DNA of 25,386 bases from a virus (taxonomy: Duplodnaviria; Heunggongvirae; Uroviricota; Caudoviricetes), in IMG/VR virus record IMGVR_UViG_2563366849_000003. The stretch is one strand, 5' to 3'. Positions 7,047-10,938 of this stretch are shown here, in pieces. Position 1 is the stretch's first letter. Each line of letters opens with the position of its first letter. A program made the translations under genes and the position numbers. The notes under the pieces were generated by a model. The model worked only from the letters and a program-made list of their open reading frames with translations, did not search any database and was not told the origin of the DNA.

Positions 7047-8237
7047 TTAATTGCTGTTAACCGAAGTGACCAGATTTGCCAGGTATTTATCGGTAATACG
7101 CTGGCGCAGGGTCAGGTTTTCGAGAGGAGGCACCGGGGTATAGTCGTAGTCGATATACAGTTTTCCGGCCTTGAGGGTTTCCGCATCGTTGGATTCTTCG
7201 CTGAACCAGCAGGTCGCATCCACGATATAGCCGTTTGTTTTCAGCTCACGGAATTTGGCATTGATGCCGTCAACGATGTCGCGAATCAGCGTTGCGGTGA
7301 TAGGCTTGTCCACCGCCCACATATGCGCCTCAGCCATCGTGTCGGCCAGCACCTGCGCGGTGCGGGTGTAGTTTTCAAAGAGGAACAGCGGGTCATCAGA
7401 GCAGGTACGGTTACCCCAGAAGCGGAAACCGTCGCGGCAAATCAGCGTAGTGACGCCTGACTCGTTAAGCAGGTCAGCATCGGTGCCGGACTCCTGCAAA
7501 TCCCAGAATACAGAGGCACTGATGCCGGTAACACCGTTTACCCCGACATTGGACAGCGTTTTATGCCAGCCCTGCTCCTGGTCGATTTTAGCGCGCAGAC
7601 CCAGCGCACGGGCGGTGGCATACGCGGTGGCGGTGGTGCTGCTGACCGTATCCCATGCGAGGAAATCCGGCCAGATGACCATCAGCTCACGCTGGCTGAA
7701 ATTCTGGCGGTAGGCTTTCACCTCGGAAATGGTTTTACAGCCCCATGCGCTGATATACCCGAAAGCGCGCAGCTTCTGACAGACTGATGCCAGTGCAACA
7801 GCCACCTCTTTGGTGTCCAGTCCCGGCACGCCGAGAATACGCGGTTTAACACCGGTTACCGACTCTGCCGCCAGCAGGGCTTTCAGTCCGGTATACTGAC
7901 CGTTTTCGTCAGTGGTGCCGATGATATTGGAAACGGTCTGCGCGAGTTTCGTTTCTTCGTCGTCGCCGGTGCCGTCTTCCACACGCACGACAACGGTGAC
8001 CGGTTTTGACTGGTCGGCGATGGCCTGCAACGATGCCGCCAGCGTGCCTTTTTTACCAGCCTTTGCAATTGCGCTCTGCACATTGGTAATCAGCACCGGT
8101 TTATTGATGGGGAAGGTTTCCGCATCCGCATCGCTGGCCGTGCAGACCATGCCGACAATGGCTGTGGATACGGTGGAAATGACGCGGGTGCCGTCGTTAA
8201 TCTCCAGCACCTGCACGCCGTGATGATAGTCACTCAT
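7047..8237 (-). CDS. FI: Contractile tail sheath protein (P2 gpFI)
   Basis: 396-aa ORF (P2 FI is 396 aa); first gene of the FI-FII-E-T-U-D late operon. Confidence 0.9.
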   Translation of the reverse strand: MSDYHHGVQVLEINDGTRVISTVSTAIVGMVCTASDADAETFPINKPVLITNVQSAIAKAGKKGTLAASLQAIADQSKPVTVVVRVEDGTGDDEETKLAQTVSNIIGTTDENGQYTGLKALLAAESVTGVKPRILGVPGLDTKEVAVALASVCQKLRAFGYISAWGCKTISEVKAYRQNFSQRELMVIWPDFLAWDTVSSTTATAYATARALGLRAKIDQEQGWHKTLSNVGVNGVTGISASVFWDLQESGTDADLLNESGVTTLICRDGFRFWGNRTCSDDPLFLFENYTRTAQVLADTMAEAHMWAVDKPITATLIRDIVDGINAKFRELKTNGYIVDATCWFSEESNDAETLKAGKLYIDYDYTPVPPLENLTLRQRITDKYLANLVTSVNSN

Positions 8238-8330
8238 CCGTTTAACTCCGTGGTTAATGGGTGCAACTATTTTCCGTTGGGTAGTACATGAGACGCTATT
8301 TGACCTGGCTGGTCAGTGGATGAAACAACA

Positions 8331-8360
8331 GATAAAGAAAAGGCGGGCAATCTGCCCGCC
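8331..8360 (-). terminator. Intrinsic terminator-like hairpin (GGCGGGCA-loop-TGCCCGCC) followed by a T-run on the minus strand
   Basis: Perfect 8-bp GC-rich stem at 8342..8349 and 8353..8360 with TTTTCTTTATC following on the minus strand. It lies downstream of the 230-aa cargo gene and next to the late-promoter box. Confidence 0.5.
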
Positions 8361-8378
8361 TGTCCTGATTTGTACACA
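8361..8378 (-). promoter_or_regulatory. Candidate Ogr-dependent late promoter element (TGT-N12-ACA) for the FI operon (PF)
   Basis: TGTCCTGATTTGTACACA fits the P2/P4 late-promoter activator box TGT-N12-ACA, located about 125 bp upstream of the FI start. The -10 element is not confidently identified. Confidence 0.5.
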
Positions 8379-8496
8379 CTCATTTTCCGACTGACAATTT
8401 ACATAGCCAAAACGCTATCAAATCTGACTGCCTGTTTTGAGCGAAGAGGAACCTGAGATTGTGGTATGCTAATTTATGGGGAGCAGGTCAATTGTA

Positions 8497-9189
8497 TTAG
8501 TTATCTTTTTGCCTTTCTTTATCCCATTTCTTTACAGTGGTCTGATACCACTCTTCACGTGCTCGTTGTTCCTCTGCTCTGTCACTTGAATTATAGTTGT
8601 CTGTTTTAATTTTTTTGCTTCCCTGGGAAATCGGCCTCCAGTCTTCTCTAATCTTTTTCATCTGCTCAGCTATCTGTGTCATTGGACTCCTTGCACCTAA
8701 GTAGCTAACCCCCTCGAAAGAAGCCATATCATAAGAATACTCATTCCGCTCTCTTTCAGTTGAGCCCGGCTGTTTAGACCAGCTAATACTAACAGAATAA
8801 ACTTGATCTTTAATCTGGTCATACTTACAAAGACTGCTGTTGAGGGAATGGCCGTTTTTCAATACGCTAACCTTGCTAAATGGTATACCTTTATTTTTTC
8901 TATGTTCTGCATTAACCAGTGGGGGATTAAATCCGACTTCAATATCATAGGCTGGGGCATTTCCGGTATTAGCAATATTGATATCAAAATAAAAAGCAGC
9001 CCAAGAATTTGGTTCAAGAGTCACAACGACATGAGGTTGAACTGATGCGTCAACCATCCTTTTTGTCTCGTCTGCTAATAGCCTTGTTACTCTCCACAAG
9101 AAAAATGTAGCAACTGCTGTTAGCAATGCTGCCAAAGCGGAGATAAGTGTACTTACTGTGTTTATATGCTCTGCGATAAATTCGATCAT
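8497..9189 (-). CDS. Hypothetical membrane-anchored protein (230 aa), cargo gene at the P2 Z/fun position
   Basis: ATG with AAGGA Shine-Dalgarno; predicted N-terminal transmembrane helix (TVSTLISALAALLTAVATFFLW) and a charged C-terminal tail; AT-rich codon usage unlike the flanking tail genes. No family recognised. Confidence 0.6.
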   Translation of the reverse strand: MIEFIAEHINTVSTLISALAALLTAVATFFLWRVTRLLADETKRMVDASVQPHVVVTLEPNSWAAFYFDINIANTGNAPAYDIEVGFNPPLVNAEHRKNKGIPFSKVSVLKNGHSLNSSLCKYDQIKDQVYSVSISWSKQPGSTERERNEYSYDMASFEGVSYLGARSPMTQIAEQMKKIREDWRPISQGSKKIKTDNYNSSDRAEEQRAREEWYQTTVKKWDKERQKDN

Positions 9190-9680
9190 GAGTTGTCCTT
9201 GGGGGCGTACTAATTGTTTTCAATACTAAAATAGCGCCGGGCTTGAAAAATTGCACACTTATGGTTCGATTTACCTCAACAGTTAAGGCTTCTACTTCCC
9301 CCGTGCACCTCACCCAGCCCAAGACTGTATGAGGTCTGACAAAGAACTTCCTGACACTTGAAAACGAGGCAACGGCTAAGGTTTCTCGTAGGGCAAGGAT
9401 TGAATACGAAGCCTGTATATTGCTCCGCAAACGCTGCTGAGGGCAGTTTAAATGTTGGGCGTTTATGTAGCCTTTCACTCACCAGCATGAGTTCAATGTC
9501 TGTGAGTTACCGACAACAATATAAAGAGGGTGGCATCATCATATATCCAAGCTAGAGTCAAATCCTCCAACTGGTTTTATGATCAGTATCAATTGTTTGA
9601 TTATTGAACGTTTACGAAGCAGCACGGGAGCCATATAACTAATGGGCAGGTATAAGCCTGTATCACGAGGAATCAGTAAA

Positions 9681-9860
9681 ATGGCTGATGATAAGACCAA
9701 AATCGGTACCCCTGACAATGATTTAATAAGTATCAAACAGGATTACGAGAGACGTGATTGGGCTGAAAAGTTTGGAGTTAGCGAGGCCAAACTTGTTCAA
9801 GCCGTACAGGCTGTAGGTCATTCGGCTAAGAAAGTACAGGCATGGCTTAAAGACCATTAA
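9681..9860 (+). CDS. Small DUF3606-like protein (59 aa; an alternative upstream start at 9642 gives 72 aa)
   Basis: MADDKTKIGTPDNDL...DYERRDWAEKFGVSEAKLVQAVQAVG... resembles the DUF3606 pattern as I recall it (MADDK-type N-terminus, conserved Y and W). GAGGA Shine-Dalgarno 9 nt upstream of the 9681 ATG; intrinsic terminator immediately downstream. Confidence 0.55.
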   Translation: MADDKTKIGTPDNDLISIKQDYERRDWAEKFGVSEAKLVQAVQAVGHSAKKVQAWLKDH

Positions 9861-9865
9861 TATAT

Positions 9866-9889
9866 GAGCGCCTTTCTAGGCGCTTTTTT
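9866..9889 (+). terminator. Intrinsic terminator after the DUF3606-like gene
   Basis: Hairpin AGCGCC-TTTCTA-GGCGCT followed by TTTTTTC. Confidence 0.6.
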
Positions 9890-9912
9890 CTTTGTCCTTT
9901 GGGAGATGATTT

Positions 9913-10191
9913 ATGGCTAATAATTTATTTATTACTTACGACCTCATTAAAACGAAAGATTATGCGGCTGTGTATGATGCAATTAAATCTTTAGGAAATT
10001 GGGCTTTAACAACTGAATCGAACTGGTATGTTAACTGTAGTTACTCTGCCGAGGATGCAGCCAAAATTGTGAGGGCGGTCATGGATAGTGATGATAAGCT
10101 TATTGTTGTAGACGCAACCAATAACTCAGCTTATTGGTACAATCTCTCAGATGAAGTTAGTAACCAAATTCTGACTGAGTGGAACAAGTAA
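9913..10191 (+). CDS. Hypothetical small protein (92 aa)
   Basis: ORF with GGGAGA Shine-Dalgarno 7 nt upstream of the ATG and a strong intrinsic terminator directly after the stop. No family recognised. Confidence 0.5.
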   Translation: MANNLFITYDLIKTKDYAAVYDAIKSLGNWALTTESNWYVNCSYSAEDAAKIVRAVMDSDDKLIVVDATNNSAYWYNLSDEVSNQILTEWNK

Positions 10192-10193
10192 TT

Positions 10194-10220
10194 AAAGGGG
10201 GTGGATAGCCCCCTTTAATT
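10194..10220 (+). terminator. Intrinsic terminator after the 92-aa gene
   Basis: AAAGGGGG-TGGATAG-CCCCCTTT hairpin followed by an AT-rich stretch. Confidence 0.65.
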
Positions 10221-10410
10221 CAGAAACTATCATGATTGAAACATTAAATATACTGGGTTAATTCTTTCATCCTTGCTCCCTTGCTATATGTCCTGAAAGC
10301 GTCCTTTTTAGCCTTCTGCTCAGTATGTCCGGTAATGGCACAGAGCGGACTGCCAGATTAGGCTTTACTCTGTGCCATAGATATGTAAGCTCCCACCAGA
10401 GCTCATACAC

Positions 10411-10938
10411 TTATTGCGGCATTTCCGGCCATTCGGGATTTGCAGGATCCACACGACTGACCAGAACGCTGTAGCGTTCCCATGCTTCCAGTCGTGTGCG
10501 TTCCTCGTCTGTTGCCATATTCAGCCTGACAGCGCGTTCCAGCGGTTGGATGACTGATTCAGCTTCGGAAAGCAATGCGGCCTTTTGTGATTCGGCCTGT
10601 TGTTGTTGCTCGTCTGCCGTATAAATCCGTTTAACCACAGCTCCGTCCCTAAACATCCACTTACCGGAATCATCAGCGCAGCGGTTGGCTGTAATATCTG
10701 GAACCTCAACGACGCTATAACCTTCAGGGTTAAGCGTGGAGGCATCTTTGGTGATGGCGACAATAATATTATTTGCATCGTAAACAATCTTTATTGTGTC
10801 TGGCTGAAAGTTTTTCACTTCCTCATACCAGTTTTTTCCGTCTTCGGACCATAACCAGATAACATCAAAATTCTTTGTTAGCTGATATTGTTCTTTTGTT
10901 TTTGGATTTCCAGACTTAATATTTTTTAAATGCTGCAT
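10411..10938 (-). CDS. G: Tail fiber assembly protein (P2 gpG)
   Basis: 175-aa ORF (P2 G is 175 aa) immediately downstream of H. Confidence 0.85.

Follow-up and report, generated by a model that had tools for sequence, protein, structure and literature searches.

Which functions are carried by two small neighbouring genes in the cargo region of a P2-like prophage, and do the two belong together? The question is raised by a stretch of 25,386 nucleotides (nt), the virus record IMGVR_UViG_2563366849_000003 of IMG/VR, which is referred to here at its full length as the window. The window is a P2-like prophage, and both genes are located in its Z/fun cargo hotspot. An earlier reading of the bare letters (the original prediction) had described two short open reading frames (ORFs) at this place, one resembling the DUF3606 family and one of 92 amino acids (aa), and all of the features that it described are present. 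The answer proposed here mainly concerns the second gene. Its product is read as a portable, nuclease-like protein of the Cas2 superfamily that would act in conflicts between mobile elements and their hosts and would be expressed by read-through of an attenuating terminator. This reading, in which the function is deduced from family, fold and context, is tentative, and its probability is put at about 0.45. The gene is located as follows:

9913..10191, plus strand: 92-aa gene, probable stand-alone Cas2-superfamily (BPSL1038-like) protein with a ferredoxin fold

The 92-aa protein belongs to a large family that has no Pfam entry. Its close relatives number 141, almost all with lengths of 91-94 aa, and it matches 2,504 cluster representatives at 50% identity. 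Relatives with 45-60% identity were found in Alpha-, Beta-, Gamma- and Deltaproteobacteria, Campylobacterota, Acidobacteriota and Planctomycetota, and in one Flavobacterium assembly. A search of the literature on stand-alone Cas2 proteins found no study of this family, and NCBIfam gave no match for either of the two small proteins.

The AlphaFold model of the 92-aa protein shows a ferredoxin-type fold with a pLDDT (predicted local distance difference test) score of 95, and a helix at residues 80-90 follows the last strand, the topology being as described in PMC10491678. When this model was submitted to Foldseek, BPSL1038 of Burkholderia pseudomallei was ranked first and a long series of Cas2 chains came after it. 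BPSL1038 was also the top match in the Protein Data Bank (PDB) for a profile of the broader family (alignment A6), over the full length and with an expectation value (E) of 0.24; PDB sequence searches with single proteins or with the profile of the closer relatives (alignment A1) gave nothing meaningful. The Pfam Cas2 model (PF09827) matches 27 of 64 close members of the family at E<1 and 17 of 113 distant members at E<0.1, the best of them at E 8.6e-7. Membership of the family in the Cas2 superfamily is thus considered probable, not proven.

Ten positions are invariant among the closer relatives in alignment A1: Y9, D10, L11, Y17, G28, S36, Y39, D58, D61 and W90. Asp10 ends strand 1, Ser36 is in the beta2-beta3 turn, and Asp58 and Asp61 are in the alpha2-beta4 loop; the order of the secondary structure elements in the model, rather than a measured distance, suggests that D10, S36 and D58/D61 would lie at the same end of the sheet. 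In the profile alignment (A6), Asp10, Lys32 and Ser36 correspond to D11, R30 and T34 of BPSL1038. In the BPSL1038 structure these three residues are at the active site of the dimer, and in Cas2-DNA complexes a metal-binding Asp/Ser pair occupies the equivalent positions (PMC10491678). The conserved D10, S36, D58 and D61 match the site at which, in Cas2 and BPSL1038, the phosphodiester backbone is contacted by a bound metal or water, and the protein is therefore read as a small nuclease or phosphodiesterase-like protein. It would probably work as a homodimer, and its enzymatic activity is predicted from these correspondences. Six relatives of 207-262 aa (P0226, P0242, P0244, P0267, P0324 and P0326) contain two tandem copies of the domain, the first copy being divergent. 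They fit a dimeric unit and point to an offshoot of the family that is pseudo-dimeric and possibly not catalytic. When longer proteins with the domain were scanned against Pfam, no informative fusion partner emerged; one of them, of 1,507 aa, appears to be either an assembly artefact or a phage baseplate fusion.

Among known proteins of this fold, BPSL1038 (PDB 7VXR; Cas2/VapD nuclease sub-family, PMC10491678) is the closest. The two N-termini (MAGNLVIV.. and MANNLFIT..) and the segments SSTAWYLN and TESNWYVN can be compared directly, and three positions correspond: the Asp with which strand 1 ends, the hydroxyl residue of the beta2-beta3 turn, and the basic residue two positions ahead of the latter (R30 and K32). 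BPSL1038 is likewise a stand-alone, acidic protein with no CRISPR nearby. It differs in that its SST triplet is replaced by one Ser with another spacing, its R10 corresponds to Tyr9, and the invariant Asp58 and Asp61 are confined to the 92-aa family; DNase activity has been reported for BPSL1038, whereas in the 92-aa family such activity is only predicted. With the Cas2 proteins of PF09827 the family shares its ferredoxin fold, the motif Y-D-[IL] that closes strand 1 and a beta2-beta3 Ser that contacts metal or DNA in Cas1-Cas2 complexes, and several database entries already label relatives of the 92-aa protein as 'Cas2'. Unlike the Cas2 of CRISPR adaptation, however, the gene in the window has no Cas1 or CRISPR array near it, its neighbours being P2 tail genes, and its product has an extra C-terminal helix. 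VapD of VapXD is another stand-alone Cas2-fold protein of about 90 aa with a small gene upstream, but the 92-aa gene has no conserved antitoxin partner, no sequence similarity between the two proteins is detectable, and the extra helices of VapD in the beta1-alpha1 and alpha2-beta4 loops are missing from the 92-aa model.

Several observations weigh against this assignment and against the function drawn from it. The profile match to BPSL1038 (E 0.24) is not significant alone, and BPSL1038 is absent among the matches of profile A1. The protein of the window reaches 12.7 bits with the Pfam Cas2 model, below the threshold of 23.8 (E 0.15), and so stands outside Pfam Cas2 as defined; alignment of the family by hhalign with the divergent type I-E Cas2 proteins of two loci (L110 and L111) found no relationship. 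Asp10 is not invariant in the broadest alignment and is lost in both copies of the tandem-fused relatives, and the D(X20)SST motif of BPSL1038 is partly kept, with one hydroxyl residue and a spacing of X25. The protein of the window is acidic, with an isoelectric point of 4.3 that is unfavourable for nucleic-acid binding, although BPSL1038 is acidic too. No significant model match was obtained with PADLOC 2.0, in which Cas2_II came out best for the 92-aa protein (E 0.019) and PDC-M03B for the DUF3606 protein (E 0.027), with none for the neighbouring 230-aa membrane protein. Finally, the survey of genomic contexts that follows is a modest sample with no background control and amounts to guilt by association.

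Relatives of the 92-aa gene were found in prophages and viral contigs, and some of them adjoin known defence systems. In two complete type I-E operons a relative is located between cas3 and cse1, and each operon has kept its own Cas1 and, after Cas1, a canonical Cas2. The idea that the 92-aa protein substitutes for Cas2 in these operons was rejected because the canonical Cas2 is present in both. A homologue also adjoins, in the same orientation, type I Thoeris genes (ThsA with SIR2-STALD, ThsB with TIR) in a Blastocatellia metagenome-assembled genome (MAG) and in an uncultured Shewanella, that is, in two phyla. Elsewhere, homologues adjoin a PARIS-like AAA_15 and DUF4435 pair in Pseudomonas (L125-L127 3568-6282) and SMODS with SLATT in Halomonas (L122 6001-7999), and these Pseudomonas and Halomonas elements bear integrases and DUF927 primase-type genes and resemble P4-like satellites. 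Other neighbours include integrases, a type III restriction enzyme, TniB with a Mu-type transposase, a serine recombinase, the YhaV toxin and a BfiI-like enzyme. The relatives spread as solitary genes among prophages, satellites and defence islands, and for this reason the role is most likely to be sought in conflict among mobile elements, phages and hosts.

Further details of these loci were recorded. The two type I-E operons (L110 6796-17057, from the Flavobacterium sp. assembly, and L111 6965-17080, from Bacterioplanoides) also contain a KilA-N protein between cas6e and cas1 and a BrxR/WYL regulator upstream. The two Thoeris-linked loci (L029 4001-6293 and L034 1730-4276) have opposite gene orders and come from unrelated phyla. 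In a compact Escherichia coli element (L121 477-5533), the gene for a major capsid protein is followed, in this order, by those for a 'TolA-like' protein of 614 aa, the small protein (here of 42 aa), a 92-aa homologue and a tyrosine integrase; the element may represent a small prophage or a satellite that encodes a capsid.

The gene directly upstream in the window codes for an unremarkable member of DUF3606, a catalogued family whose function is unknown:

9681..9860, plus strand: DUF3606 gene of 59 aa, with a GAGGA ribosome-binding site at 9667-9671, 9 nt upstream; called from Pfam, PHROG, RefSeq and dN/dS (the ratio of non-synonymous to synonymous change)

The resemblance to DUF3606 noticed in the original prediction was borne out by the Pfam profile PF12244, which matches the 59-aa protein over positions 1-54 of its 54 with 65.3 bits, against a gathering cut-off of 24.3 (E 4.3e-18). 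PHROG 10779 also matches (E 8e-39). In 25 DUF3606 homologues D12, E23, R25, W27, E35 and G46 are invariant, and a length of 59 aa fits the family's range of about 58-85 aa. The protein is therefore a full-length, high-scoring member with the conserved D, E, R and W positions of its family, and differs only in riding on a phage cassette. The start at 9642 given by the original prediction belongs to a longer ORF that does exist (9642-9860, 72 aa) and that encloses the 59-aa reading beginning MADDKTKIG... at ATG 9681, but the shorter reading is the true one and the longer probably unused. The 59-aa start is taken as real because 'MADDK' is the conserved N-terminus across the family, because the RefSeq coding sequence (CDS) has the same length (180 nt), and because the transcription start predicted from the candidate promoter described below, at about 9646, comes after ATG 9642.

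Between the window and L004, a genomic island with a copy of the same module, the DUF3606 gene has 12 synonymous and 2 non-synonymous codon changes, with a dN/dS of 0.035. Judged from such sequence comparisons, both ORFs are real genes under purifying selection. The AlphaFold model of the DUF3606 protein, with a pLDDT of 76, has residues 1-11 disordered, followed by three short helices; a Foldseek search with it returned no match below E 1, and its UBA-like and LacI-type helix-turn-helix likenesses are too weak for use. Searches of the literature yielded no functional study of DUF3606 and nothing under the three RefSeq accessions.

The DUF3606 and 92-aa genes are not an obligate pair and do not form a system. 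In 45 of the 48 species-representative loci with a 92-aa gene, no DUF3606 gene lies within 4 kb; the two are found together only in the window and its nearest enterobacterial relatives, namely L004-type islands, a Pantoea locus (L016) and a viral contig (L085). Conversely, the 92-aa gene is missing beside the DUF3606 genes of Yersinia ruckeri, Burkholderiales and Pseudomonas, and the Pseudomonas DUF3606 gene sits among genes for a KGG stress protein, hemerythrin and CinA. In other Enterobacterales the hairpin core and the ribosome-binding site before the 92-aa gene are kept and the upstream gene is swapped for a protein of about 41 aa ('KTTVTETIK') or for DUF2188. Across about 75 diverse loci, a small hydrophilic protein holds the same-strand slot directly upstream in about 20 (the ~41-aa family in about 9, DUF3606 in 4, DUF2188 in 3, others in the remainder), and the other loci have none. 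Nor is any other neighbour family present in more than about 9 loci, and the 92-aa family thus has no conserved partner across its range. The doubt that the original prediction had cast on a classical toxin-antitoxin bicistron was well placed: the genes are apart in most genomes, and within one cassette they have diverged to different degrees (92% and 72% identity, see below).

The ~41-aa family found upstream of the 92-aa gene is lysine-tailed (consensus ..RSAITGQFV...AKRHP.TTVTETIK.P.KK.KK) and has no Pfam match. It was recorded at L010 3819-3944 and in L017-L020, L035, L041, L084 and L086, a range that extends from Enterobacterales to a Planctomycetales MAG.

The same hotspot cassette of the window holds a third gene, which is divergently oriented:

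8497..9189, minus strand: gene for a 230-aa membrane protein (DUF8453, PHROG 11802)

A partnership between the small proteins and this membrane protein had been suggested in the original prediction. It was rejected, since the distribution of the 230-aa gene is decoupled from that of the pair: the two small genes occur without it in L004-type islands, and 462 complete E. coli genomes have, without the pair, a shorter paralogue of it with 75% identity. One example of the paralogue was inspected (L120 3408-3980), and there it lies beside a gene with an AbiJ-NTD4 domain and insertion sequence (IS) elements. A literature search returned no functional study of DUF8453.

How the two small genes might be expressed can be read from a series of signals around them:

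9611..9639, plus strand: candidate sigma-70 promoter of the cassette, TTTACG-17 nt-TATAAC, conserved in L004, L016 and L085
9647..9660, plus strand: palindrome CAGGTATAAGCCTG, after the putative -10 element and ahead of the DUF3606 ribosome-binding site, in the 5' leader predicted for that gene (alignment A4)
9866..9895, plus strand: intergenic hairpin of the intrinsic-terminator type (9866-9885) with U-tract, from terminator scan and folding
9901..9906, plus strand: Shine-Dalgarno sequence GGGAGA of the 92-aa gene, 6 nt before ATG 9913
10190..10220, no strand assigned: perfect 13-bp hairpin overlapping the stop codon of the 92-aa gene, probable bidirectional terminator, from terminator scan and folding

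The promoter pattern TTTACG-17-TATAAC matches once in the window and in 0 of 100 shuffles. A generic promoter scan of 8200-10500 found no site; it missed this one because the -10 element ends in C. Use of the promoter in transcription is suggested by its conservation. The palindrome may be an operator or an RNA leader stem, and the sequence CAGGYATAAGCCTG occurs in 31 of the 121 loci then fetched, with the DUF3606 module in every one that was checked. An Rfam scan of 8200-10450 found no RNA family, only terminator-like matches below threshold.

The intergenic hairpin consists of 8 GC-rich pairs followed by TTTTTTCTTT, with -16.5 kcal/mol and a z-score of -2.8. Its core, GCGCC...GGCGC, precedes the 92-aa gene in enterobacterial loci whichever gene is upstream; it is nearly invariant, and the few changes in it (for example in L084) are wobble-compatible only. 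At the position of the ribosome-binding site, GGGAGA or CTGGAGA is found in 17 distinct enterobacterial sequences upstream of the 92-aa gene. The hairpin and U-tract lie in a spacer of 52 nt between the two genes, and the 27 nt from the hairpin to the second start codon hold the ribosome-binding site only. The terminal hairpin has -19.1 kcal/mol and a z-score of -3.6; it folds on both strands and therefore looks bidirectional. Hairpins with a G-run and a C-run are found at the same position in L004, L016 and L017.

According to the original prediction each gene had its own terminator and the two might thus be regulated independently. The two hairpins are indeed there, but independence is not what the layout suggests: since 27 nt are too short for a promoter of its own and the scan found none, the 92-aa gene probably needs read-through of the first terminator. 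The hairpin at 9866-9885 is thus probably an attenuator between the genes. Under this model, the DUF3606 gene would be transcribed from the conserved sigma-70-type promoter and most transcripts would end at 9866-9885, giving DUF3606 a high level; the 92-aa protein would be made only from transcripts that read through the hairpin, at a low or conditional level. The terminal hairpin may additionally stop the convergent late tail-fibre transcript. The good Shine-Dalgarno sequence and the strong terminator that the original prediction had given to the 92-aa ORF are both present (GGGAGA; the 13-bp stem); what it missed were the Cas2-like fold and the very large family.

The flanks of the hotspot, both on the minus strand, are the tail sheath gene, with its end at 8237, and the tail fibre assembly gene, with its start at 10938, and 2.2 kb lie between them. 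This insertion point, between tail fibre assembly gene G and tail sheath gene FI, is shared with the Z/fun cargo ('moron') genes of P2 phages, such as fun(Z) of P2 and ORF1 of the P2-EC53 Z-region; fun(Z) itself is unrelated to either small gene. A trace of the origin of the cassette was found in the interval that separates the 92-aa gene from the tail fibre assembly gene:

10241..10402, minus strand: decayed 3' end of a tyrosine integrase gene with in-frame stops, matched by tblastn to residues 339-392 of the L004 integrase (52% identity, E 1.5e-11)

By this match it is a remnant of the previous host element of the cassette. Nucleotide homology between the window and the L004 island, which is otherwise unrelated, spans 9570 to 10339, the module copy in L004 being 79% identical, and in L004, L010, L084-L086 and L121 an intact tyrosine integrase gene lies at the element's edge, with the 92-aa gene convergent to it. 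Taken together, the homology to L004, the decayed integrase end and the intact integrases beside the relatives indicate that the P2 hotspot took up an integrase-proximal piece of another element; a mobile cassette of about 0.77 kb (window 9570-10339) would thus have been captured from the integrase-proximal end of an integrative element. Identity to L004 is about 92% over the promoter and DUF3606 part and 72% over the 92-aa gene at the nucleotide level, which points to a mosaic module with a junction near the intergenic hairpin.

The cassette was already present in databases and in the literature. The copy in the infectious phage R18C has 99.7% identity to it, and that of the P2-EC53 'Z-region' entry (AJ512682) 99.3%. 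Among 5,426 complete E. coli genomes, 99 contain the entire 2.2-kb region and 102 the two-gene part (>=97% identity, that is, at least 97%). The R18C paper mentions two short ORFs of unknown function at the same spot, one of them sometimes annotated as DUF3606 (PMC6823313); these earlier descriptions of R18C and P2-EC53 gave the small ORFs no function or fold. The GenBank record of R18C (MN016939; L003 2984-3118) has a 44-aa antisense ORF at the position of the DUF3606 gene and omits the DUF3606 CDS, and in the P2-EC53 record neither small gene is annotated. Both look like annotation errors. A repeat finder did not recover the long 'inverted repeats' that AJ512682 has in its annotation.

Other explanations of the locus have to be weighed against the proposed one. 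That one or both ORFs are non-functional hitch-hikers or mis-called is very improbable. They are short and lie in an AT-rich hotspot, and the R18C record shows a different, antisense ORF in place of DUF3606, but the low dN/dS of DUF3606, the uniform length and the invariant residues of the 92-aa family across phyla, the conserved ribosome-binding sites and the confident structure prediction all speak for genuine genes. A small gene followed by a gene with the VapD/Cas2 fold, in a cassette carried by mobile elements, might instead be a VapXD-like type II toxin-antitoxin or abortive-infection module, in which the 92-aa protein would be an RNase toxin and the small upstream protein (DUF3606 here, others elsewhere) a swappable antitoxin. 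Antitoxin swapping is common in toxin-antitoxin evolution, and some small hydrophilic protein does fill the upstream slot in the ~20 of ~75 diverse loci counted above. Most members of the family, however, have no plausible upstream partner, including those in the two cas operons and in the Thoeris-linked L029; DUF3606 stands alone in chromosomes, once beside KGG stress-protein genes; and in the window a spacer of 52 nt with a strong terminator separates the two genes, which are not translationally coupled. BPSL1038 was moreover expressed in E. coli with no toxicity reported (PMC10491678). Such a module is accordingly regarded as quite improbable.

Hardly more credit can be given to the view that the 92-aa protein is a counter-defence factor of phages and satellites, acting as an enzyme on or sponge for immune-signal nucleotides or as a decoy, with DUF3606 as unrelated cargo. 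A small single gene in prophage cargo hotspots and viral contigs, an acidic product in the window, and conserved acidic and Ser residues that suggest a catalytic or ligand site would suit such a factor, as would neighbours that include the signalling-based Thoeris and SMODS-SLATT systems. But the gene is co-oriented inside complete type I-E operons and beside chromosomal Thoeris, which is unexpected for an inhibitor of those systems, its identity of 45-60% across phyla is far above that of typical anti-defence proteins, and no known anti-defence family was matched, the lone Tad3 match (E 0.019) being noise. It is also unlikely, if a little easier to entertain, that both small proteins act under stress or in stationary phase, being carried as cargo for lysogenic conversion, and have no part in phage conflict. 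The Pseudomonas DUF3606 gene among KGG stress-protein, hemerythrin and CinA genes, the small, hydrophilic and lysine-rich proteins of several families that repeatedly hold the slot upstream of the 92-aa gene, and the lack of a defence-model match for either protein would agree with this. Stress regulation, though, has no direct evidence, Cas2-type active-site residues are conserved, and the 92-aa gene recurs in defence hotspots and beside recombinases across phyla. The last two of these points fit a portable, nuclease-like Cas2-superfamily protein, which is the reading preferred here.

For the most part, the finding of the two genes is an ordinary one. What weight it may have lies in the 92-aa family, with about 2,500 clusters, no Pfam entry, unusual conservation and an occurrence in defence hotspots. 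The family may be an unrecognised and very widespread stand-alone branch of the Cas2 superfamily, a portable enzymatic accessory of immune loci, for instance a small nuclease or phosphodiesterase, by which neighbouring systems (type I-E CRISPR-Cas, Thoeris, SMODS-SLATT and PARIS among them) would be tuned, backed up or counteracted; this wider idea is a speculative one, with the odds well against it. If true, it would explain why the gene has been captured by the defence hotspots of P2 and of satellites across phyla. Should the 92-aa protein prove to be an active nuclease or an immune modulator, it would give a biological setting to BPSL1038, a Cas2-like DNase, and would be a very small and easily tested addition to the catalogue of defence and counter-defence proteins.

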